Positions 3,263 to 27,212 of a DNA stretch of 28,313 nt are shown here, one piece after another. Each line of letters begins with the position of its first letter. Positions within the stretch are counted from its first letter, which is position 1. Under the pieces are notes generated by a model. That model was not told the origin of the DNA, made no database searches, and saw only the letters and a program-made list of their open reading frames with translations. Source of the DNA: a virus (taxonomy: Duplodnaviria > Heunggongvirae > Uroviricota > Caudoviricetes); the IMG/VR virus record IMGVR_UViG_2721755712_000003, positions 1 to 28,313 of that record; one strand, given 5' to 3'. The translations under genes were made by a program, and so were the position numbers.

Positions 3263-4149
3263 AGCGACCTCCCTTAACGTGGTGCTGCCGCTATTCTAAG
3301 TTGCTCACTCTGTTTCCGCTATCCATTCCGGGATTTTTGCCTCAAGCTCAAGCTGCGTGGTAAAGCCGCTGTTATCAATGGTGTGCCCGGCTTTTGCAAT
3401 AATCCAGTCCTGATTATCAATCTCGCTTTTAAATCCTGTTACCGTGCCATGCATTTCGGGGTAGAGCTCTGCACGTCCACGCGCCAGCGTGATGGAGAAT
3501 GATGCGGCTCCGCGTTGTAGTTGCTGCCACTTTGCCGCCGCTGCGCGTCTTGCTGCCTGCTCGTTCTGATAAGTCTTGCGTAACACAAACACATTGCCTT
3601 CCGCGCCTTCCATATAATCACCTTCACGGCTGCTGCTTTTCTCCTTTTTGGGTTTTGGCGGTTTACGGCGTTTCACGCTGACTTTTTTCTTTTTCCCGTA
3701 ATTAAGATCAAGCCAGTAGGCGCGTACCCCCGTATACGCCTCGCGGTCAGCAATGCGGAACTGATGGCGATCGCCGCTGCTGCGTGTAATGGCGAACGAG
3801 GGCAACGGCTGGCCCTGTGCGTTCACGCCACCACCTGGCATGATGAATAACAGATTGCCGCTTTTTACCGTGGTGATTGCACCCAGCATTTCCGCCATGC
3901 GCGTAAGGAAGGACATGTCGCTTTCTTCGGTCTGGTCGGCGTGGTCGATTTCGATATCCATCAGCATTTCGCTGATTTGCGGTTTCAGACCATACCGATG
4001 AGCGATGGCGGATACCACACGCTCAACGGTCACATCATGCCAGGACACCTCACGTTTAACGTTAAATTCATCCCAAAAATCTGCGCTTCTGGCTGAAACA
4101 GTCAGCCTGTCCGGCGGTCCTTCGTGAGCGATTTCATCAACAATGTAAG

Positions 4150-5370
4150 TGTAGATTCAATTGGTCAACGCAACAGTTATGTGAAAACATGGGGTTGCGG
4201 AGGTTTTTTGAATGAGACGAACATTTACAGCAGAGGAAAAAGCCTCTGTTTTTGAACTATGGAAGAACGGAACAGGCTTCAGTGAAATAGCGAATATCCT
4301 GGGTTCAAAACCCGGAACGATCTTCACTATGTTAAGGGATACTGGCGGCATAAAACCCCATGAGCGTAAGCGGGCTGTAGCTCACCTGACACTGTCTGAG
4401 CGCGAGGAGATACGAGCTGGTTTGTCAGCCAAAATGAGCATTCGTGCGATAGCTACTGCGCTGAATCGCAGTCCTTCGACGATCTCACGTGAAGTTCAGC
4501 GTAATCGGGGCAGACGCTATTACAAAGCTGTTGATGCTAATAACCGAGCCAACAGAATGGCGAAAAGGCCAAAACCGTGCTTACTGGATCAAAATTTACC
4601 ATTGCGAAAGCTTGTTCTGGAAAAGCTGGAGATGAAATGGTCTCCAGAGCAAATATCAGGATGGTTAAGGCGAACAAAACCACGTCAAAAAACGCTGCGA
4701 ATATCACCTGAGACAATTTATAAAACGCTGTACTTTCGTAGCCGTGAAGCGCTACACCACCTGAATATACAGCATCTGCGACGGTCGCATAGCCTTCGCC
4801 ATGGCAGGCGTCATACCCGCAAAGGCGAAAGAGGTACGATTAACATAGTGAACGGAACACCAATTCACGAACGTTCCCGAAATATCGATAACAGACGCTC
4901 TCTGGGGCATTGGGAGGGCGATTTAGTCTCAGGTACAAAAAACTCTCATATAGCCACACTTGTAGACCGAAAATCACGTTATACGATCATCCTTAGACTC
5001 AGGGGCAAAGATTCTGTCTCAGTAAATCAGGCTCTTACCGACAAATTCCTGAGTTTACCGTCAGAACTCAGAAAATCACTGACATGGGACAGAGGAATGG
5101 AACTGGCCAGACATCTAGAATTTACTGTCAGCACCGGCGTTAAAGTTTACTTCTGCGATCCTCAGAGTCCTTGGCAGCGGGGAACAAATGAGAACACAAA
5201 TGGGCTAATTCGGCAGTACTTTCCTAAAAAGACATGTCTTGCCCAATATACTCAACATGAACTAGATCTGGTTGCTGCTCAGCTAAACAACAGACCGAGA
5301 AAGACACTGAAGTTCAAAACACCGAAAGAGATAATTGAAAGGAGTGTTGCATTGACAGATTGAATCTACA
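4150..5370 (+). mobile_element. IS30 insertion sequence, complete (1221 bp), flanked by 2-bp target duplication AG
   Basis: Left end TGTAGATTCAATTGGTCAACGCAAC at 4150; right end is its imperfect inverted copy (22 of 25 matches) ending at 5370. AG at 4148-4149 and 5371-5372. Length equals canonical IS30. Confidence 0.95.
4212..5363 (+). CDS. insI: IS30 transposase
   Basis: 383-aa ORF MRRTFTAEEKASVFELWKNGTGFSEIANILG... recognised as the E. coli IS30 transposase (HTH N-terminus, DDE core). Confidence 0.95.
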   Translation: MRRTFTAEEKASVFELWKNGTGFSEIANILGSKPGTIFTMLRDTGGIKPHERKRAVAHLTLSEREEIRAGLSAKMSIRAIATALNRSPSTISREVQRNRGRRYYKAVDANNRANRMAKRPKPCLLDQNLPLRKLVLEKLEMKWSPEQISGWLRRTKPRQKTLRISPETIYKTLYFRSREALHHLNIQHLRRSHSLRHGRRHTRKGERGTINIVNGTPIHERSRNIDNRRSLGHWEGDLVSGTKNSHIATLVDRKSRYTIILRLRGKDSVSVNQALTDKFLSLPSELRKSLTWDRGMELARHLEFTVSTGVKVYFCDPQSPWQRGTNENTNGLIRQYFPKKTCLAQYTQHELDLVAAQLNNRPRKTLKFKTPKEIIERSVALTD

Positions 5371-8075: not shown

Positions 8076-10869
8076 TATCCGGGTCGCTTTCAGCGCCGTT
8101 GACAGGCTGACCCAGCCTGCCGAAAACGCCCGCCGCCTGATGGGGCAGTTTGGTGACTCCATCCAGCGAACGCAGGGGGCGATCAAAAATCTCGAGCGTC
8201 AGGCGCGTTCATTTGAGCGCGCCCGCGACGCTGTCAGTAAAGCGGATGCGGGTATCGTGAAAGCACGACGCCAGCTTAACGCCCTTAATCAGTTACAACG
8301 CACGGGTACAGTGCTCAGCGAAAAACAACAAAAGCTGATGCAGCAGTTAAGCACCCGGCTTGAACGCCTGAATGAATCGCGCACGCGGGAAATTCAGAAA
8401 ATGCGGGAGCTTGGCGGAGAGCTGAAACGCCACGGCATTTCCCTGACAGGCAGCGATAACACCATCCAGCAGGCCATCAGACGCACCGAACAGTACAACA
8501 ATCAGCTTGAACGCGAACGGCAGGCGCTTGCGCGTGTAACGCGGGCGCGTGAGCGGTATTCGCGCGCGCAGGAAACAGCGGGAAAACTGAAAACAGGTGG
8601 TGCACTGGCAATTGGTGCGGCAGCGGCGGGCGGCTATGCTGCCGGGCGTTTTTTGCAGCCTGCGATCGGGTTCGGGAAAGAGATGTCCCGCGTTCAGGCA
8701 CTGACGCGAATCGACCAGAACAGCCCGCAGTTTAAGGCGCTGCGTGAGCAGGCGTTAAAACTTGGCTCTGAAACGCAGTTCACCGCAGGCGATGCCGCCA
8801 GTGGGCAGGCATTTCTGGCAATGGCTGGCTTCACACCGCAGGCCATTCAGGCTGCGCTTCCCGGCGTGCTGAGCATGGCAACGGCTGGCGGTATGGACCT
8901 TGGCGAGACGGCAGATATTGGCTCAAATATCCTGACGCAGTTCGGCCTCTCCGCTGACCAGATGGACCGGGTCGGTGACACGCTTACAGCAGTGTTTACC
9001 CGTACTAACACTGACCTTCGCGCACTGGGCGAAACCATGAAATATGCAGGTCCGGTGGCGGGTAAGCTGGGAATATCGCTGGAGCAGGCCGCAGCGATGG
9101 CGGGCGTGCTGGCGAATATGGGTATCAGAGGGAGTGATGCCGGGACGGCAATGCGTGCCAGCCTGGCTCGTCTGGCATCACCGCCAAAGGCGGCAGCAGA
9201 AGCGCTGAAAGAGCTGGGTGTGTCCGTCTCTGATGCGAACGGCAAAATGCGCCCGATGGAAGATGTGCTGGCCGACCTTTATAAAGCCACCCGTAAATAC
9301 GGGGAAGTTGACCGGGTATCGTTCTTTAAGGACATTGCCGGGGAAGAGGCTTTCACGTCGTTTATGGCTCTCGTTGATGCGGCGGGTGACGGCTCCCTGC
9401 CCAAACTGAGAAAAGAACTTGAGGGCGCACGCGGTGAGGCTGAACGCACGGCAAAGGTTATGGCCAATAACCTTGATGGCGACCTGAAATCACTCGGCAG
9501 TGCATGGGAAGGGCTGCGTATCCGCATTGCAGATCTGATTGATGGTCCGCTGCGTTCTGTCACGCAGTGGCTCACGCGGGTGGTCTCAAAGGTGACGGCG
9601 CTGGCACAGGCCCATCCGGTACTGACGCGCCAGTTACTGATAGCAGGCGGTGCGCTGCTGGCAATGACTGCAACGGTTGGCTCGTTGTCGCTGGTTATTG
9701 GAGTGCTTCACGGGAAGCTGGCCACGTTGCGTCTTGGTTTTTCTCTCCTGACCGGATCAATGAATGCTGTCAGGCTCCTGCCAGCACTATGGGGAATGGT
9801 GACGGGTTCCGTTTCGTTACTGGGGGGCGCTATCGGGGCGCTGTTCAGCCCGGTCGGATTGATTGCTGCTGCGTTTGTGGCTGCGGCAGTTCTCATCTGG
9901 AAATACTGGGAACCCATCAAGGCGTTTTATGCCGGGGTGTTCAGCGGGATTATGGAGCGGCTGGCCCCGTTACGCGAAACCTTTGAACGGTTTGGTCCTG
10001 TTTTTGACGCAATCGGAAGCGGGATAAGTCAGGTGTTTAACTGGTTTAAATCGTTGCTGTCACCGATGGAGTCCAGCAAGGAAACGCTGGATAAATGTAC
10101 CAGTGCTGGCGAGATATTCGGTAACGTTCTTGGCGGTGCGTTACAGCTTGTTCTGACGCCCGCAAAAATGTTGCTGGATACGCTGGCGTGGATACTTGAA
10201 AAACTCGGTGTGCTTCCGGATGAAGCGGAAAGGGCGAGAAAGAAAATCGAAGACGCACAGCGTGCGGCCATTCTTCAGGACAAGGTTGCTCTGTTTCAGG
10301 GAGACATTGCGAAAATCAATCCGCCGAAGTCTGCGGAAAATGGCAATGGCACCGGAGGTGATAAACCCAAAGACAATAAACCGCTCACAGACAGCAATAC
10401 CGGTACGCTACGCAGACTCAGCAAAATTGCTGATAACACAGGTAAGCTGGTTGATGAGACGAAAAAACGTATTGGCCCCGGCGATATTGTCTTTAAGAAC
10501 CTGCCCCGCGCACTTGCCGTTCGTGGGGAGTGGCAGGAGCGGAAGATTGTGCAGGTCAGTAAGCCTGCCCCCGCAATTAATATCACACCCGTGGTCCCGG
10601 CTCCGCTGCCTCCGGCGCTGGTCCCTGTTGTTGCGGCCAGCTCCCGCCCGGTGGCGGAGGCCATACGATCTCCAGTGGCATCAGTTCCTGTAACTTCCCG
10701 TAACCGGGAGCCTGTTGCCTCCGGATTTGGTGGTGAAATTCATGTTCATCTGCATAACGTTGTTACGCAGAATCCCCGCGAACTGGCGAAACTGGTCGGT
10801 GAAATGGTCAGGGCAGAAATGGAACGGCGCGCCCGTGCCGGGCGTGGCAGTTTTTACGATAAAGATTGA
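8053..10869 (+). CDS. T: tail tape measure protein
   Basis: About 938 aa, coiled-coil N-terminus, central hydrophobic block, Ala/Gly-rich segments, Pro-rich C-terminus. Start taken at ATG 8053 (or 8062), overlapping the E' end. Confidence 0.9.
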   Translation: MQTMKTLDIRVAFSAVDRLTQPAENARRLMGQFGDSIQRTQGAIKNLERQARSFERARDAVSKADAGIVKARRQLNALNQLQRTGTVLSEKQQKLMQQLSTRLERLNESRTREIQKMRELGGELKRHGISLTGSDNTIQQAIRRTEQYNNQLERERQALARVTRARERYSRAQETAGKLKTGGALAIGAAAAGGYAAGRFLQPAIGFGKEMSRVQALTRIDQNSPQFKALREQALKLGSETQFTAGDAASGQAFLAMAGFTPQAIQAALPGVLSMATAGGMDLGETADIGSNILTQFGLSADQMDRVGDTLTAVFTRTNTDLRALGETMKYAGPVAGKLGISLEQAAAMAGVLANMGIRGSDAGTAMRASLARLASPPKAAAEALKELGVSVSDANGKMRPMEDVLADLYKATRKYGEVDRVSFFKDIAGEEAFTSFMALVDAAGDGSLPKLRKELEGARGEAERTAKVMANNLDGDLKSLGSAWEGLRIRIADLIDGPLRSVTQWLTRVVSKVTALAQAHPVLTRQLLIAGGALLAMTATVGSLSLVIGVLHGKLATLRLGFSLLTGSMNAVRLLPALWGMVTGSVSLLGGAIGALFSPVGLIAAAFVAAAVLIWKYWEPIKAFYAGVFSGIMERLAPLRETFERFGPVFDAIGSGISQVFNWFKSLLSPMESSKETLDKCTSAGEIFGNVLGGALQLVLTPAKMLLDTLAWILEKLGVLPDEAERARKKIEDAQRAAILQDKVALFQGDIAKINPPKSAENGNGTGGDKPKDNKPLTDSNTGTLRRLSKIADNTGKLVDETKKRIGPGDIVFKNLPRALAVRGEWQERKIVQVSKPAPAINITPVVPAPLPPALVPVVAASSRPVAEAIRSPVASVPVTSRNREPVASGFGGEIHVHLHNVVTQNPRELAKLVGEMVRAEMERRARAGRGSFYDKD

Positions 10870-18238: not shown

Positions 18239-19243
18239 TTAGCTGTCGGCGAACTTCAGGCCTGTGACCATCGCGCACTTGCCATAGTCTTCAACGACAT
18301 AAGCGTCATTGATGGACTGGTAGGTGGCGATGCGGTTGTATTCCGGCTCGTCTTTCATCAGGCGACGCATTGAGCCTCTCTGCCAGTAAATTGACAGGTT
18401 GTTGAATGAGGTGATCAGCATCGTTGCATCCGGGAAGAACGGCGCAAGGAATACATCCAGCCCACCAATGGTGCGCGATGACAGGATGAGCTGTCCGGCG
18501 AGTAATTCCGCATTGGGATTCTGGCCGCTGATGCTGTTCAGCACGGGCAGACGCAGCGAGTTAAACAGGTTGCGCCCCATAATCACCACGAGGTCGTCTG
18601 CTTCCTTGTGCCATTCATCCAGCAGGGATGAGCGCGCGTCCTGTACCAGTGCATCAGCGTTCGCATACTTACCCGCGTGCGCCACTGTGTTGTCCATGTT
18701 GCGGGAAGTCAGCGTCACGTCATTCATTACGCGTTCACTGGCATCGGTTCTGATGTGCTCCAGCCAGCCCACGTTAACGTCCTGAAGCAGCTTGTTGGTG
18801 CTGAAATTGGATTTTTCCGCGTGTGATGTGCCGTTAAAGCCGATCATGATGCGGTCAAGCGCCACCTGCCGGGCAATCTGTGTGCTGATGCGCGACTGAA
18901 AATCGCTGTGAGCCGCCCAGGCATCAAGCTTCGGGTATGAAATAAACGTGTCGTAGTTCACCTGTTCACACTGGTACTGACGAGCCTTCATATCGACAGC
19001 GTTAATCGGATTACGGCGATCTGTGCCGTCATAACTGGTATTCGTGCGCGCAATCGGCCCGGTGGTGTCCAGGAGAACTTTTTCGCCTTTCTGGTCAGTT
19101 ACACCGATTACATTAATTCTTTTCGTAAATTCGGTACTTTCCTTTGAAGCGTTTTCAAAACGCTGTTGTACCGATGGATTGACGGTAAATCGCGATACCA
19201 GCGCAGAAACCGGGATATTGTTAAGCGACGCCTGCTGCGTCAT
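18239..19243 (-). CDS. N: major capsid protein gpN (5' end clipped relative to P2 N)
   Basis: 334 aa; FTVNPSV, RINVIGV and DAYVVEDYG blocks match P2 gpN. Homologous reading continues about 11 codons upstream of the first ATG into the P ribosome-binding site with no start codon. Confidence 0.9.
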   Translation of the reverse strand: MTQQASLNNIPVSALVSRFTVNPSVQQRFENASKESTEFTKRINVIGVTDQKGEKVLLDTTGPIARTNTSYDGTDRRNPINAVDMKARQYQCEQVNYDTFISYPKLDAWAAHSDFQSRISTQIARQVALDRIMIGFNGTSHAEKSNFSTNKLLQDVNVGWLEHIRTDASERVMNDVTLTSRNMDNTVAHAGKYANADALVQDARSSLLDEWHKEADDLVVIMGRNLFNSLRLPVLNSISGQNPNAELLAGQLILSSRTIGGLDVFLAPFFPDATMLITSFNNLSIYWQRGSMRRLMKDEPEYNRIATYQSINDAYVVEDYGKCAMVTGLKFADS

Positions 19244-19288
19244 GTAGCAGCCCAGCTTGTTACGGGCATTAATTACTCAGGGGGAGCA

Positions 19289-20542
19289 ATGATTCAGGAC
19301 GCTTTTGTGCGCCAGCGTGCGCGGCAACTTTACTGGCAGGGTTATCCGCCCGCAGAAATATCACGTCTGATGGGAATAAACCCGAACACGATTTATGCGT
19401 GGAAAAAACGCGACCAGTGGGATGAAACGCCCCCCGTGCAGCGTGTCACGCAGTCCATCGATGCGCGCCTCATCCAGCTTACTGAAAAACAGAATAAAAC
19501 AGGCGGTGACTTTAAGGAAATAGACCTGCTGACCCGGCAGCTTAAAAAGCTGCATGATGGCCAGCCGGATGTGATGGCCGCAGGAAAGAAAGGCCGGGCG
19601 AAAAAACTTAAAAATCATTTCACGCCGGAACAGATTGCCGCACTGCGGGAAAAAATCATCAGCAGGCTGGAGTGGCATCAGCGGGGCTGGTTTGACTCCC
19701 TGACACTTTGCAGGGAAGCCGGGATACGTAACAGGATGATCCTGAAATCCCGACAGATTGGGGCGACCTGGTATTTTGCACAGGAAGCTCTGCTGATGGC
19801 GCTGCGTGACGATGTGGCGCAACCTTACCAGCGTAACCAGATTTTTTTGTCTGCGTCGCGTCGTCAGGCGTTCCAGTTTAAAAGCATTATTCAGAAGGTC
19901 GCGGCTGAAGTTGATGTGGAGCTGAAAGGGGGCGATAAAATCATCCTCTCCAACGGCGCAGAGCTGCATTTTCTCGGCACTTCTGCTGCGTCGGCACAGT
20001 CCTATACGGGCAATTTTTATTTTGATGAATTTTTCTGGGTCAGTCGCTTTGCTGAACTGCGCAAGGTGGCTGGCGCTATGGCAACCCTCAGCGGACTGCG
20101 GCGCACCTACTTCTCCACGCCATCCACCGAAACGCACGAGGCGTACGCCTACTGGAACGGCGACCGCTGGAACGAGAAAAAGGCCTCGCATAAACGCCAG
20201 CGTTTTTCTGTGGACTGGAAAACGCTGCATAACGGGCTTATCTGCCCTGACCGGACTTGGCGGCAAATTGTCACGCTGGAAGATGTGGTTAATCACGGCT
20301 GGAAACACACCGATATCGACGAAATTCGTGATGAAAACACCGAAGACGAGTTCCTCAATCTCTATATGTGTGAGTTTGTCCGCGAAGGGGAATCGGCATT
20401 TAACCTGAATATCCTGATTGGCTGCGGTGTTGACGGATACGACGACTGGAAAGACTGGAAACCTTTTGCTCCCCGCCCGATGGGGAATCGTCCGGTATGG
20501 ATTGGGTATGACGCAAACGGCAGCAGTGGCAACGGCGACACC
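19289..20542 (+). pseudogene. P: terminase large (ATPase) subunit gpP, 3'-truncated at about aa 418
   Basis: GGGGGAG SD before ATG 19289; terminase-like sequence up to ...GYDANGSSGNGDT, after which the ORF is the antisense of gene A. Confidence 0.85.
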
Positions 20543-20544
20543 GT

Positions 20545-21822
20545 GCGGATGCCATACCAGCGCAGGCCGTCGCGGTTCAGTTTCTTGCGGACCGCCGCAA
20601 AAAACGAGTTAACCAGGTAATCGCTGGAGTCGCGCATAGTGGCCCCGTTCCATTTGGGATTCGGATGACCGTTCTCCGTTGTTGCGTGGTATTTTGACGG
20701 GCAGGTGACAGTCAGAAACACCGCTCTGTCGCCACGGGCTTCGGCCAGAAGTTCCAGCCCCTTCATGGTGGCCATCATTTCTGCCTTACGGTGAACCGGG
20801 TTACTTACTCCCGCGTAATACACTGTCTCAAGATCAATCGTGAACCCGTCTTCGTTTTCCAGCATGAAACTTTTCAGGAAATCGCGTGTTTTCTCGCGCT
20901 GTGCGCGAAACTCGCTTAACGCATCCTGGCTCAGATAGGGCGATGTTTTTCTGGAAACCAGACAGGCGGCGCGGAGTTGTTCTTCTCTCCACTCGCAACG
21001 TAACAGCCACAGTTTGCGTTTCCACCATTCCGCACAGGTCAGGCGAAGGATTGCGCCCGGCAGCAGCTCCGTGTCTGGTTCGTTCCTCCGGCCTTTGTCT
21101 GTTGTCAGTGCGTCATAATGCGGAGGCATGGCGTGCAGGTGTAACGCCATGCGGGCCAGCATCTGATACGCCTTCAGCGTTACATCCATGGTCAGCTCGC
21201 CATCAGTCGCACCAAAGCCATCGCAGAGTTTTTCGAAGGTGCTGCTGAACATCGCCGCCGTCATGGTGGCCAGCGTCTGTATCTGGTGTTTGTTGAGCTG
21301 CGGCAGGTAAAGCAAATCGTCCAGGCGTTCGCGTCCGGCAAGGGAGCGATAACCCGGTGTCAGCCAGTGTCCGTCAGTGCGATCCAGACGTTCGAATATT
21401 TTGCGCAGGGTTCCGCGTGCATAGCGTTCTGCCTGCCAGCTCTTTTTGCCTTTCCGGCGATCGACTTCCTGTTTTTTGCGCAGGAAGGAGAGGTGGCGAA
21501 TAAGCGGATCGCGCAGATAGGACGGCAGCAGGCGCAGCGAGGCCATGGCTTCATCCACCGCGCCGCGTGCCTGTCTTCTGGCGTCTCCTGCCAGCGTGAT
21601 GGTTTTGTCCTGTTTTTCCTGTGCGTCCAGGCTTTTATTAATCAGGTTGCCCAGTGGCGTGGCAGAGAACGCCGCATCAGCCTTTTCCTGTCGGCGCTCG
21701 TTCTCTGCCTGGTAGGCATCCAGCCAGGAGGAAAGCGCGGATTCAGGTGCGGGGATCCCCGTTCCTTCACGCCCCACTGCGTGGCGCGGTTGTTGCCAGT
21801 CCCTGATGTACTCTGTCGTCAT
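20545..21822 (-). pseudogene. A: replication initiation endonuclease gpA, 3'-truncated before the HUH active-site region
   Basis: N-terminal about 425 aa is gpA-like (…FLTVTCPSKYH…RWYGIR) and stops resembling gpA where the Val-Glu-Pro-His-His-Asp-Gly block would follow; beyond that the ORF is antisense of P. Confidence 0.85.
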
Positions 21823-21828
21823 ACTGAT

Positions 21829-22194
21829 TTACTGCGTCATACCGTTCAGGGTGTCACGGCAAACGGCAGCCAGCCGCTGAATTTCCAGCACGGTGTCTTC
21901 TGTGTCGGCATAGCGATGTGTGATGCGGATGCTGTCGGCAATCACATCGACGATTGCAGAGGATGGGCGCTGGTAAATGCCAATAACGGACGGAGTGCCA
22001 CCTTCAATGCGGTAAAGCCTGTAATTTCCCTCGTGGCTGTCAATCATGTAGCGACCATCAATAACAATCTTTCCGTCAGCGAGCTGCGGTACAGGCAGGG
22101 ATTTCAGGTACATGTCATAACGTTCACGCACGCGAACGGCAAGATCACGCTCTGTGTTGAGCAGGTATTCAAGAAAGTCGTTGGCGAGAATCAT
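21829..22194 (-). CDS. hypothetical early protein, 121 aa, immediately upstream of A
   Basis: Stop 6 nt before the A start; no recognisable motif. Confidence 0.5.
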   Translation of the reverse strand: MILANDFLEYLLNTERDLAVRVRERYDMYLKSLPVPQLADGKIVIDGRYMIDSHEGNYRLYRIEGGTPSVIGIYQRPSSAIVDVIADSIRITHRYADTEDTVLEIQRLAAVCRDTLNGMTQ

Positions 22195-22266
22195 TGCGGC
22201 AATCCTCTTGTTACAGATGTGCGAAGGCCTCCTGCCGCAAGGTGCAGGAAAGGCCCGGAACAGGAA

Positions 22267-22497
22267 TTAATGGAGTTTGTTTTGCTGCTGGATGAGCTGC
22301 TGAAGCTCGCGCAGATCATCCGCCAGATAACTGAAAACAGCGGATGAGTAGAGGTTTGAAAGTTCGCAGCTACGCTCATGCAGCATATTGATGTGCATGA
22401 TTTTAGCGACGCGGAATGCGCGGGAAAGTCTGCGGTTGATTTCAGTCTGGATGTGACGACGCTCCGCGATAGCGCGGTGCTGTTTGCGGTTTGCCAT
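22267..22497 (-). CDS. hypothetical basic 76-aa protein
   Basis: AAAGAGG SD 7 nt before ATG 22495-22497; preceded by a structured, GC-rich leader. Confidence 0.45.
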   Translation of the reverse strand: MANRKQHRAIAERRHIQTEINRRLSRAFRVAKIMHINMLHERSCELSNLYSSAVFSYLADDLRELQQLIQQQNKLH

Positions 22498-22674
22498 GGT
22501 GTGGCCTCTTTGGTTGTAAGTTTTGAAAACTCACCATCCAGAGCTGCGAAACTGTGGGTGGCGAGACGTACGGGGTTCGCAGTACCGGCAACCAAAGAAC
22601 CCGGCCCGACCGAAGTCGGCCCCGTACGCCCCGCCATAATTCTGACGCGAAAAAAACGTGGCAATACAGTACGC

Positions 22675-22702
22675 ACAAAAAAACCGCTGGCGCGGTTGTG
22701 CG
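22675..22702 (-). terminator. intrinsic terminator (hairpin followed by T7 on the minus strand)
   Basis: Minus-strand RNA reads CGCACAACCGCGCCAGCGGUUUUUUUGUGCG; the T-run is the complement of 22675-22681. Lies downstream of the SPFH gene. Confidence 0.55.
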
Positions 22703-22864
22703 CTTTGGTTGTCAGCAGGCTGCGAAACCCGGCACCCGTTTTATGAGGTGCAGCGAAAATGTAACCTGACTGATTGCGGCATGGCAAGCGGTTTTTTTGT
22801 GAGAACGGCATACTAAAAAATCCTGATACTGCTCCGGCCAGCGGTTTGCACTGGCCGGGTGTCA

Positions 22865-23695
22865 TTACTTCACGGGAACGAACGGAACAGCGGTGTTACT
22901 GGTCATGTATTGCGGCAGCGTGCCGTTCCATTTGTTGATTGCTTCCAGCTCCATAACGCCGGGATTCTGGCGCAGAGCTTCGCCGCGTAAACGAATGGCG
23001 TCGGCTTCAGCCTGGGCTTTTGTGCGAATGGCATCGGCCTGTCCGGCAGCTTCTGCGCGCAACATGTTGGCTTCTGCTTCGCGTTGCTTGACTTCCTGTT
23101 CGCGTTGCAGGGTTTTCTGGTTTGCCGTGACTTTGGCGTTAATGCTGTCGATAACGGTTGGCGGATATTCCGGTTTACCGACATAAGAGAGGCTCATGAC
23201 CTGAATACCGATGGGGGTCATCTCTTCCTGAATATCTTTAAGTGCTGAATCCAGCAGTTCAGACTTACCACCGTCGATAAACTTATCGGTGGTCATTTTG
23301 CTGGCCAGTCGGTTGAGTGCATCGGCGATCTTCTGGCGCAGGTCAGTGTCGGTAATGTCGTCCACGCCTTTGCGGTAGGTCTGAAACACCGTGGTAACTT
23401 TGGATGGATCAACTTTGTAGGCCACGCCGATGTGATAGCCGATGGTTGTGCCGTCACTCATCTGGAAGTTGAACGGCTCATCGTAACTCTTCATTTGTTT
23501 GAAGGTCGGGAAGATGTAAACCTCTGTATTCCAGCCTGTCCAGTAGCGGCCAACGCCAACCACTTCACCGACGCCTTTGTCGTCGCCCAGTTTGTTGACT
23601 TTGATGCCCACATTACCTGGCTCAACGCGATCGCAACCAACCAGCAGGATGGCGGCAAAAAGCGGGAGAATCTGAAAGAGTCTGAATTTCTTCAT
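22865..23695 (-). CDS. SPFH/band-7 (stomatin/prohibitin-like) lipoprotein
   Basis: 276 aa, lipobox LLVGC, SPFH-like core followed by an Ala/Gln/Glu-rich coiled coil (QREQEVKQREAEANMLRAEAAGQADAIRTKAQAEADAIRLRGEALRQ). Start overlaps the upstream gene stop (ATGA). Confidence 0.75.
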   Translation of the reverse strand: MKKFRLFQILPLFAAILLVGCDRVEPGNVGIKVNKLGDDKGVGEVVGVGRYWTGWNTEVYIFPTFKQMKSYDEPFNFQMSDGTTIGYHIGVAYKVDPSKVTTVFQTYRKGVDDITDTDLRQKIADALNRLASKMTTDKFIDGGKSELLDSALKDIQEEMTPIGIQVMSLSYVGKPEYPPTVIDSINAKVTANQKTLQREQEVKQREAEANMLRAEAAGQADAIRTKAQAEADAIRLRGEALRQNPGVMELEAINKWNGTLPQYMTSNTAVPFVPVK

Positions 23696-26490: not shown

Positions 26491-26778
26491 CTAAAGTCCC
26501 AGCCACAACAACCATGCGTCGCGGCGTTCTTTCGGTTGCTCAAAAAACGCTTTGCGCATGCCTTCGTTAAATGCTGGCAGATATACCCAGTTTTCTGATG
26601 CACGCGTCTTCACTGAACCTGGTTTCACAAAGTCAATCGTTGGTAACTTTGCAGCGTCAATCATGGTTCTGACGGTTGATTCTTTGCGACCAATCATCTT
26701 GGCAAATAGTTGATATGGCACCGCTTCAAGTGGATATGGTGCTACCTGAATGAACCCCTCAAGCTCTGATTCGCTCAT
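26491..26778 (-). CDS. cox: Cox-like excisionase / lytic-switch repressor
   Basis: ...PYQLFAKMIGRKESTVRTMIDAAKLPTIDF...ENWVYLPAFNEGMRKAF...RDAWLLWLGL matches P2 Cox as remembered (...PYQEFAKLIGKSTGAVRRMIDKGKLPVIDM...YWVYLPAWNNGLKLAY...RDGWLMWLGL). Confidence 0.9.
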   Translation of the reverse strand: MSESELEGFIQVAPYPLEAVPYQLFAKMIGRKESTVRTMIDAAKLPTIDFVKPGSVKTRASENWVYLPAFNEGMRKAFFEQPKERRDAWLLWLGL

Positions 26779-26891
26779 TGTGGTAATCTCCCTAATTCGT
26801 TCGAATGGCTCAAAATGGCTTATATCGGCTTATTTGAGTGTTTTTATGTTTGTGCCCGATGTGGCATGTTGCGATGGAGGATATGCCCGAT
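26779..26891. promoter_or_regulatory. cox/C divergent immunity switch region with phased direct repeats (candidate operators)
   Basis: GGCT at 26807, 26817 and 26827 (exact 10-bp phasing; AATGGCT twice); TGCCCGAT-N-TGGCAT at 26853-26867 and 26884-26898 (14 of 15 identical), the second overlapping the C start codon. Confidence 0.55.
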
Positions 26892-27212
26892 ATGGCATCT
26901 TTGTCAAGCATGGGTGAAAAATTTCGCCTGATTCGTGAAGCAGAAGGTATGACCCGCCAGGAGTTTGCGGATTGTGTTGGGCTGCCTTATGGGACGGTAA
27001 CTAACTATGAGGTGAGGGGGAAGCAAGTAACAGAGGGTGCCTTACTTAAGGTTACGAAACACCCTAAATTTAAGAAGTATGCTTATTGGTTATTAACAGA
27101 TGAAACGATGCCGGAGGTCGGGCAAATTTCTCCGGCTCTCTCTCTTGATGGTTCCTGCAATTCGGAGGGAGATCGCGTTTCAACCGAAACAATCCAAAAA
27201 TTATCCCGCTGA
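26892..27212 (+). CDS. C: immunity repressor C (HTH)
   Basis: ...CVGLPYGTVTNYE...KHPKFKKYAYWLLTDETMPEVGQISPALS resembles P2 C as remembered (...GVPYGTLSYYE...QTPQFTKYTLWFMTNQIAPESGQIAPALA). Start chosen at ATG 26892; the longer ORF from 26838 is less likely. Confidence 0.8.
   Translation: MASLSSMGEKFRLIREAEGMTRQEFADCVGLPYGTVTNYEVRGKQVTEGALLKVTKHPKFKKYAYWLLTDETMPEVGQISPALSLDGSCNSEGDRVSTETIQKLSR

Follow-up and report, generated by a model that had tools for sequence, protein, structure and literature searches.

The window, a stretch of viral DNA of 28,313 nucleotides, very probably carries an antisense-RNA immunity module of the IsrK/C4 kind. The module is part of the early operon of a P88-like E. 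coli prophage, now defective, and its C4 RNA probably represses a gene whose 76-amino-acid product resembles the epsilon protein of phage P4. Several features of the sequence point this way: a promoter-like site, members of two RNA families, two sets of triple complementarity, a target site that overlaps a Shine-Dalgarno sequence, covariation of the pairing sites across related loci, and favorable energies for pairing at those sites. Judging by the family matches, what lies upstream of the 76-aa gene belongs to two curated families, C4 and isrK, and is not a novel leader.

Two RNA genes precede an epsilon-like gene

A sequence-only reading of this DNA had described a structured leader with a thrice-repeated motif and had proposed checking it with an Rfam scan and by RNA folding. 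We scanned the whole window with Rfam and obtained just two matches above the gathering scores, one to C4 and one to isrK, both on the minus strand and both inside the region in question. The C4 antisense RNA (22554..22641, minus strand) scored 87.1 bits against RF01695 (gathering score 45 bits) and covers positions 1-87 of the 87 in the model. The IsrK-like sRNA (22677..22751, minus strand; 75 nt) is a full-length match to RF01394, with 65.9 bits (gathering score 50 bits). A permissive scan gave an extra, sub-threshold match to c4-a1b1 that overlaps isrK. By sequence comparison, the IsrK-like sRNA is a homolog of seqA from P4 and of the a1b1 leader from P1.

On the minus strand, the order of the parts is a promoter-like site, the IsrK-like RNA, a 35-nt spacer, the C4 RNA, a 56-nt leader, and the 76-aa gene. 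The promoter-like site (TTGCCA-18 nt-TACATT; 22758..22787, minus strand) was found with a consensus scan, and its predicted start, at about 22751, is the first base of the IsrK-like RNA match. Other loci have a -35/-10 pair at the equivalent position 5' of the module, including the annotated P1c4 (P51b) promoter of P1. We also considered a second promoter-like site in the spacer between the two RNAs (TTGCCA-17-AATTAT; 22636..22664, minus strand) as a promoter for C4, and we rejected it: it is not conserved in the lambdoid loci, whose spacer is 24 nt, and transcription from it would start inside the C4 stem. It is probably not used.

The IsrK-like sRNA folds into three hairpins, and the last of these is the intrinsic terminator that had been noticed from the sequence (minus strand, stem 22697..22682 followed by U7). 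Similarly, the GC-rich nested stem that had been noticed (ACGTACGGGG at 22567-22576 and CCCCGTACG at 22620-22628) forms the helix that closes the C4 RNA. When aligned to the 77-nt C4 annotated in P1, the C4 of the window has a predicted mature form of about 79 nt (about 22635..22557). The alignment to the annotated ends of P1 C4 and the conserved GCCACC at the 3' end suggest, by homology, that C4 would be processed.

The thrice-repeated motif was reproduced exactly: CTTTGGTTG lies at 22508-22516 and 22703-22711 on the plus strand and at 22589-22597 on the minus strand, and it occurs nowhere else in the 28.3-kb window. In dinucleotide-preserving shuffles (with copies on both strands counted), 0.34 +/- 0.61 copies were expected, and 0 of 100 shuffles reached three. 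The central copy, which extends to the 10-mer CAACCAAAGA at 22589-22598, is the b' antisense element of C4 (UCUUUGGUUG; 22589..22598, minus strand) and lies in the 12-nt loop of C4 hairpin 2. The downstream copy, which reads CAACCAAAGAGG on the minus strand (22516..22505), is the target site b2 (22505..22516, minus strand). As the sequence-only reading had claimed, it overlaps the Shine-Dalgarno sequence of the 76-aa gene (GAGG, 22508..22505), which is 7 nt 5' of the ATG (22497..22495). The upstream copy is the competing site b1 (CAACCAAAG; 22703..22711, minus strand), and it sits inside the IsrK-like RNA, which is to say inside a separate, terminated sRNA. The earlier suggestion of an RBS-occlusion switch or a small regulatory RNA agrees with this arrangement, in which the loop of a C4-family antisense RNA is complementary to a site on the Shine-Dalgarno sequence.

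There is also a second triple repeat, beyond what had been noticed before: UUCGCAG occurs at 22726..22720 and at 22550..22544, and its complement CUGCGAA occurs at 22582..22576 (all minus strand). The complement is the a' antisense element (22576..22582), in the unpaired junction that follows C4 hairpin 2. Of its two target sites, a1 (22720..22726) is in the loop of IsrK hairpin 2 and is a perfect 7-nt complement of a', and a2 (22544..22550) is 3 nt downstream of the C4 match.

The pairing sites covary across 14 phage loci

The homologous stretch, comprising the isrK/C4 module and its flanking genes, was found in 1400 records in 1399 of 5426 complete E. coli genomes, and a 751-nt query that includes the module had at least 99% identity in 143 records. 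Matches to P88-like phages (genus Xuanwuvirus, family Peduoviridae) were 87-95% identical, and with the RNA part alone, many lambdoid and Stx phages match as well, at about 70% identity.

We compared 14 loci: the window, P88, Citrobacter phage Shae_phiSM, eight lambdoid E. coli phages (five of which are Stx-converting), Salmonella phage ST64B, P4, and P1. The comparison loci were taken from BLAST matches in a phage collection. (Scanning viral contigs with a degenerate pattern for the C4 core was not useful: the spacing in the pattern was one base off for this subtype, and 31 of the 32 matches were due to chance, in GC-rich contigs.) All 13 of the further loci have a C4 match above the gathering score. 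Twelve of them also have an isrK match above the gathering score, and P1 has c4-a1b1 instead. The C4 fold is the same in all 14 loci. The consensus for these 14 homologs has 27 base pairs, of which 15 show changes on both sides and almost none are broken.

Both sets of target sites are conserved in position. In all 14 loci, a complement of a' (6-8 nt, usually a perfect 7 nt) is found within IsrK and again 0-7 nt after C4, and a complement of b' (8-12 nt) is found within IsrK and again 28-38 nt after C4. The a1 site is at IsrK offset 25-26 (25 in 13 of the 14 loci; 38 in P1) and covaries in sequence, while b1 is at offset 40-41 in 13 of the 14 loci (51 in P1) and covaries with the C4 loop. The b2 site abuts or overlaps the Shine-Dalgarno sequence (GAGG or GGAGG) in every one of the 14 loci, 9-12 nt before the ATG. 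There are at least nine distinct b sequences and at least nine distinct a sequences across the 14 loci, and the antisense elements match their own targets better than those of other loci: helix scores were 9.8 for cognate and 4.7 for non-cognate b':b2 pairs, and 7.0 versus 3.4 for a':a2 pairs. In other words, both the a and the b systems covary three ways at fixed positions, which is strong evidence that the RNA-RNA pairings are selected.

The a and b sequences assort independently. Shae_phiSM has the b sequence of the window but not its a sequence, and two Stx phages have its a sequence but not its b sequence. This suggests recombination between the specificity elements, and also partial cross-reactivity of a predictable kind.

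We made two other observations on these loci. First, the segment UGGUGAG (22530..22536, minus strand) is able to pair with CUCGCCA, the 3' strand of the stem that closes C4; in unprocessed transcripts, a2 would then lie in the loop of a hairpin. P4, PhiR46, and F039 have compensatory changes here, but cognate pairs are only weakly distinguished from non-cognate ones, since the segment as a whole is too conserved for a sharp comparison. Second, phage P13803 has an Rfam match to sRNA-Xcc1 (L042 2223-2306; 79.6 bits versus a gathering score of 53), which lies under a CDS annotated as antB2, about 840 nt downstream of C4.

Folding and the probable regulation in trans

The 88-nt C4 segment has a predicted folding energy of -49.8 kcal/mol (z = -3.9) and forms a long closing stem around two hairpins. 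The b' (CUUUGGUUG) and a' (CUGCGAA) elements are both unpaired in this fold, and the cost of opening them is 0.7 kcal/mol and 0.0 kcal/mol, respectively. For the window locus, the net energy of each pairing (the duplex energy minus the opening costs) is -6.0 kcal/mol for b':b2, -6.7 kcal/mol for a':a2, -8.4 kcal/mol for b':b1, and -6.4 kcal/mol for a':a1. We used these site energies in place of RNAcofold, which gave a ddG of about 0 for mature C4 with the leader or with IsrK, no better than for shuffled targets. The RNAcofold results are uninformative because pairing between a hairpin loop and another RNA is beyond the reach of a pseudoknot-free model.

As had been anticipated from the sequence, pairing between the motif copies is favored. 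The minimum-energy fold of the 272-nt read-through transcript (-108.1 kcal/mol, z = -3.5) has a1 and b1 paired with a' and b' in cis and leaves the RBS unpaired to C4. The sequence-only reading had proposed that the central copy could pair with either of the others. Its pairing with the upstream copy, b1, is borne out in the full-length transcript (mean pair probability 0.66), but its pairing with b2 at the Shine-Dalgarno sequence is absent from the minimum-energy fold (0.0). If the canonical C4 fold is enforced, then the energy is -107.6 kcal/mol, which is just 0.5 kcal/mol worse, so the precursor can sit in either state. Because the minimum-energy fold pairs b' with b1 and not with b2, repression would need processed C4 acting in trans, or else a kinetic path. 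In this model, repression at the RBS requires that C4 be freed from a1 and b1, as processing provides in P1 and P4.

These results bear on the earlier idea of an attenuator. An RNA switch is supported, but we expect regulation to act mainly in trans, via a processed RNA of about 79 nt, and not as a classical cis attenuator. If the switch acted purely in cis, with no stable trans-acting RNA, this would account for the presence of three copies on one transcript and for the alternative pairings that are predicted. However, the family that the central element matches over its full length has processed, stable, trans-acting members in P1 and P4. The strong compensation in the closing stem and the conservation of GCCACC at the 3' end also fit a processed RNA. 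We consider a purely cis-acting switch to be very unlikely.

The overlying Ash reading frame

A 224-aa open reading frame (22865..22191) runs across the module, and if it encoded an "Ash family" protein, then the repeats might be incidental. This protein does match Phage_ASH from Pfam (PF10554; 30.1 bits versus a gathering score of 26) as well as several PHROG families described as "transcriptional regulator", and PGAP annotates an ash-family pseudogene. However, the residues that match Phage_ASH (35-126) correspond exactly to the RNA module, that is, to translated IsrK, C4, and leader. The PHROG matches and the PGAP pseudogene are likewise confined to this translated RNA. The founding member of the family, the "cI 137 aa" ORF of P4 (L046 8168-8584, minus strand), is obsolete; it overlies the CI RNA and matches Phage_ASH at 59.7 bits. 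Codon substitutions among the window, P88, and Shae_phiSM do not favor the Ash frame either: 3 of 31 changed codons are synonymous, as compared to 10 of 33 in the epsilon frame, and the frame of the 76-aa (epsilon) gene has more synonymous changes than either other frame. Moreover, the Ash frame was free of stop codons in 16% of codon shuffles, and the covarying a and b sites alter the putative Ash peptide freely. Given that the match is limited to the RNA module and that neither the codon-substitution test nor the shuffle test supports coding, we rejected the ORF as a real gene; that it encodes an Ash protein seems extremely improbable. The RefSeq "ash family protein" pseudogene is most simply explained as a translated RNA gene, and the Phage_ASH family as a whole looks like a translated RNA gene as well.

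At its 5' end, C4 contains a conserved AUG, in AAUUAUGG (22635-22637, minus strand), and in 13 of the 14 loci the frame that starts at this codon has no stop within C4. This frame is in frame with the downstream gene in P4 and in eight of nine lambdoid loci (PhiR46 is the exception). Because the frame through C4 is continuous with the downstream gene, many phage records extend the CDSs for Rha or antirepressor proteins across both RNAs. There may be a link to orf45 of Gifsy-1, which is translated.

The operon lies in a defective P88-like prophage

The presumed target of regulation is the 76-aa gene (22267..22497, minus strand). Its product matches Derepression from Pfam (PF25738) at 29.5 bits, just above the gathering score of 27, and matches phrog_3688 at 153 bits. 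By BLASTP it is 29% identical to P4 epsilon over 66 amino acids (E = 1e-8). The Pfam match is marginal but consistent, and we assign the protein to the Derepression family on this basis. It has no similarity to Icd of P1. The next gene in the operon encodes a 121-aa protein (21829..22194, minus strand) that matches phrog_3237 at 183 bits; this protein has no match in Pfam and no significant similarity to ORF151 of P4. NCBIfam gave no matches for three ORFs. The gene order through the 121-aa gene is identical in P88 and Shae_phiSM. The spacer between the 76-aa and 121-aa genes (22194-22266, minus strand) seems to be conserved in the window, P88, and Shae_phiSM, as judged from identical alternative-frame translations, while the middle of the 76-aa gene has diverged. 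By eye, a short hairpin (CCUGC...GCAGG) may be present in this spacer, ahead of the next Shine-Dalgarno sequence.

The last gene in the operon is gene A, which encodes a replication endonuclease of the P2 gpA family (20362..21822, minus strand; Phage_GPA from Pfam, 312 bits). It is truncated at its 3' end: the match covers positions 1-246 of the 321 in the Phage_GPA profile, and RefSeq marks the gene as incomplete. Gene A overlaps the end of a truncated terminase gene in the opposite orientation (window 19166-21822), so a deletion has taken out the intervening region. In P88, the region that was lost between gene A and the terminase carries par genes. Elsewhere in the window, an IS30-like transposase (HTH_38 and rve; 4212-5363) adjoins a fragment of gpD (3305-4048; profile positions 84-304), and is probably an insertion in the late control gene D.

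The prophage that carries the module is P2-like and adjoins pdxB. It has an integrase, a Cox homolog (26491-26778), and an immunity repressor of the P2 C type (26838..27212, plus strand; 37% identity to P2 C over 83 amino acids, E = 3e-23). This C repressor belongs to the same prophage and is part of its context, outside of the RNA module. Overall, this is an E. coli prophage of the P88-like kind (P2 family), and it is defective. We found no match to C4 or isrK in P2 itself between int and tin; the module was thus added in the P88 group. The RNA module is intact despite the defects in the prophage, and it may now provide only RNA immunity or may be neutral.

A proposed mechanism, and other modes of action

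For promoter use, read-through of the terminator, processing, and RNA-RNA binding at the window locus, our proposal follows P1, P4, and Gifsy-1. By analogy, most transcripts would stop at the IsrK terminator. Those that read through would be processed by RNase P (at the 5' end) to yield the C4 RNA of about 79 nt. The a' and b' elements of C4 would then pair with a2 and b2 and block binding of the 30S subunit to the epsilon-like gene, much as C4 blocks expression of ant in P1 (PMC8198154). The loss of translation of the epsilon-like gene would have polar effects and lower the expression of the 121-aa gene and of replication gene A. The a1 and b1 sites would be decoys that compete for C4, either within the precursor itself (in cis) or from the short IsrK-like RNA (in trans), and would in this way set a threshold and tune or relieve repression. 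Once made, the epsilon-like protein would antagonize the prophage's own C-type repressor, in a role like that of Ant in P1. We infer this last step because P4 epsilon acts on the C repressor of P2 and the C repressor of this prophage is similar to that of P2; the P4 record annotates epsilon as a helper derepression protein.

The C4 RNA might instead act as described for P4, mainly by premature termination of transcription of the operon and not by blocking the initiation of translation. P4 has an equivalent module (isrK-like at 8692..8615 and C4 at 8507..8420 of L046) with epsilon and a replication gene downstream, and its CI RNA is described as a termination factor (PMC4825925, PMC3632133). 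But the stretch from C4 to the 76-aa gene in the window has no predicted intrinsic terminator, and the presence of b2 on the Shine-Dalgarno sequence in all 14 loci fits translational control. Also, Rho-dependent polarity could result from translational control instead of being the primary event. We think it unlikely that termination is the main mode here.

A somewhat better prospect, though still on the unlikely side, is a mode like that of IsrK from Gifsy-1, in which the read-through mRNA is inactive and is activated in trans by the short IsrK-like RNA, so that the module is chiefly a positive switch for the epsilon-like gene. This idea comes from experiments with Gifsy-1, where the net effect of the short RNA is activation, counter to the repression model (PMC4825925). 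The short and read-through isoforms, the binding of Hfq, and the trans-activation of the long isoform are known for Gifsy-1 only (PMC4825925). At the window locus, the isrK model is matched at 65.9 bits, the terminator permits both short and long isoforms, and the long transcript has two near-isoenergetic folds (-108.1 and -107.6 kcal/mol). On the other hand, C4 does not sequester the Shine-Dalgarno sequence of the 76-aa gene in cis in the predicted folds. There is also no equivalent at the window locus of orf45, the leader ORF to which the antirepressor gene is coupled: in the window, the reading frame that crosses C4 differs from that of the 76-aa gene and does not end where that gene starts. 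We prefer repression by occlusion of the RBS. P4-style termination and Gifsy-1-style activation are not mutually exclusive with it and could operate as well; the sequence cannot separate these modes.

Novelty and implications

This kind of module is already known: Rfam curates it, and there are descriptions from P1, P7, P4, N15, Gifsy-1, and lambdoid prophages. In particular, an "IsrK-C4 immunity system" has been discussed for P4, P1, P7, N15, and lambdoid prophages (PMC3632133), and there are published accounts of IsrK, STnc1160, and the seqA/CI relationship (PMC4825925, PMC3632133). In the literature on Xuanwuvirus and P2-like phages with C4 or IsrK, we found no description of a member from the P88 group, nor of C4/IsrK paired with an epsilon-like gene and gene A in that group. 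Only the member in the window and its P2-like context are uncharacterized, and little changes for the field.

There are some practical implications nevertheless. RefSeq annotates this stretch in E. coli genomes as hypothetical proteins or as an "ash family" pseudogene, and not as RNA. The finding of a P2-family phage with the module 5' of an epsilon-like gene and gene A links the regulatory parts of a helper phage and a satellite (P4). And the independent exchange of the a and b recognition sequences offers a simple route to predicting cross-immunity groups.

More speculatively, the C/Cox switch of P88-like phages in the P2 family may be topped by a second tier of immunity, based on RNA and of the type of immI in P1. 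IsrK/C4 would then gate both gene A and an epsilon-type anti-repressor aimed at the P2 C-like repressor of the phage itself. We put this forward tentatively, as a possibility that we would not yet bet on. If it is true, then RNA-level signals, and not C/Cox alone, would decide induction, and a defective prophage that keeps the module would confer sequence-specific RNA immunity against incoming P88-like phages or P4-like satellites with the same a and b specificities.

Comparison with known systems

Close counterparts are known from Gifsy-1 (isrK-orf45(STnc1160)-anrP) and from lambdoid and Stx phages (isrK/C4 with Rha or Ant). These have the same two-RNA module, with about 70% nucleotide identity over IsrK and C4, and likewise have a gene of the anti-repressor type downstream. 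Both RNAs are already annotated in the record of one Stx2 phage (LC710660). In these phages, however, an antirepressor of the Rha/AnrP type is in frame with the open frame through C4, whereas the 76-aa gene of the window is out of frame. The a and b specificities differ as well, except that the a sequence of the window is common to two Stx phages.

P4 (PLE-seqA-CI RNA/seqB-seqC, epsilon, alpha) also has an isrK-like RNA followed by C4, with derepression and replication genes downstream in the same operon. But the gap between the IsrK-like RNA and CI is 107 nt in P4 and 35 nt in the window, and in sequence the C4 of the window resembles the lambdoid type more than it does P4. In P4, the ORF whose start adjoins seqC/b2 is not epsilon, which is about 245 nt beyond the end of the CI match, whereas in the window the epsilon-like gene comes directly after b2. 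Control in P4 is described as termination of transcription, and the replication gene encodes a primase (alpha) and not gpA.

The layout of the window is that of immI from P1 and P7 (c4-icd-ant; RF01695, with c4-a1b1 as RF03163). The order in the P1 record (promoter P1c4, a1, b1, C4, a2, b2, icd, ant) is the same, as are the placement of b2 at the RBS, a' in the junction, and b' in the hairpin loop, and the RNA fold. In both cases, the downstream operon leads to an anti-repressor function, a presumed one in the window. There are differences as well. In the window, the first ORF is epsilon-like instead of Icd, and the operon lacks Ant1/2 and runs into a P2-type gene A. The upstream element of the window matches isrK and has its own terminator. 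And the host element of the window is an integrated P2-like prophage, whereas P1 is a plasmid prophage.
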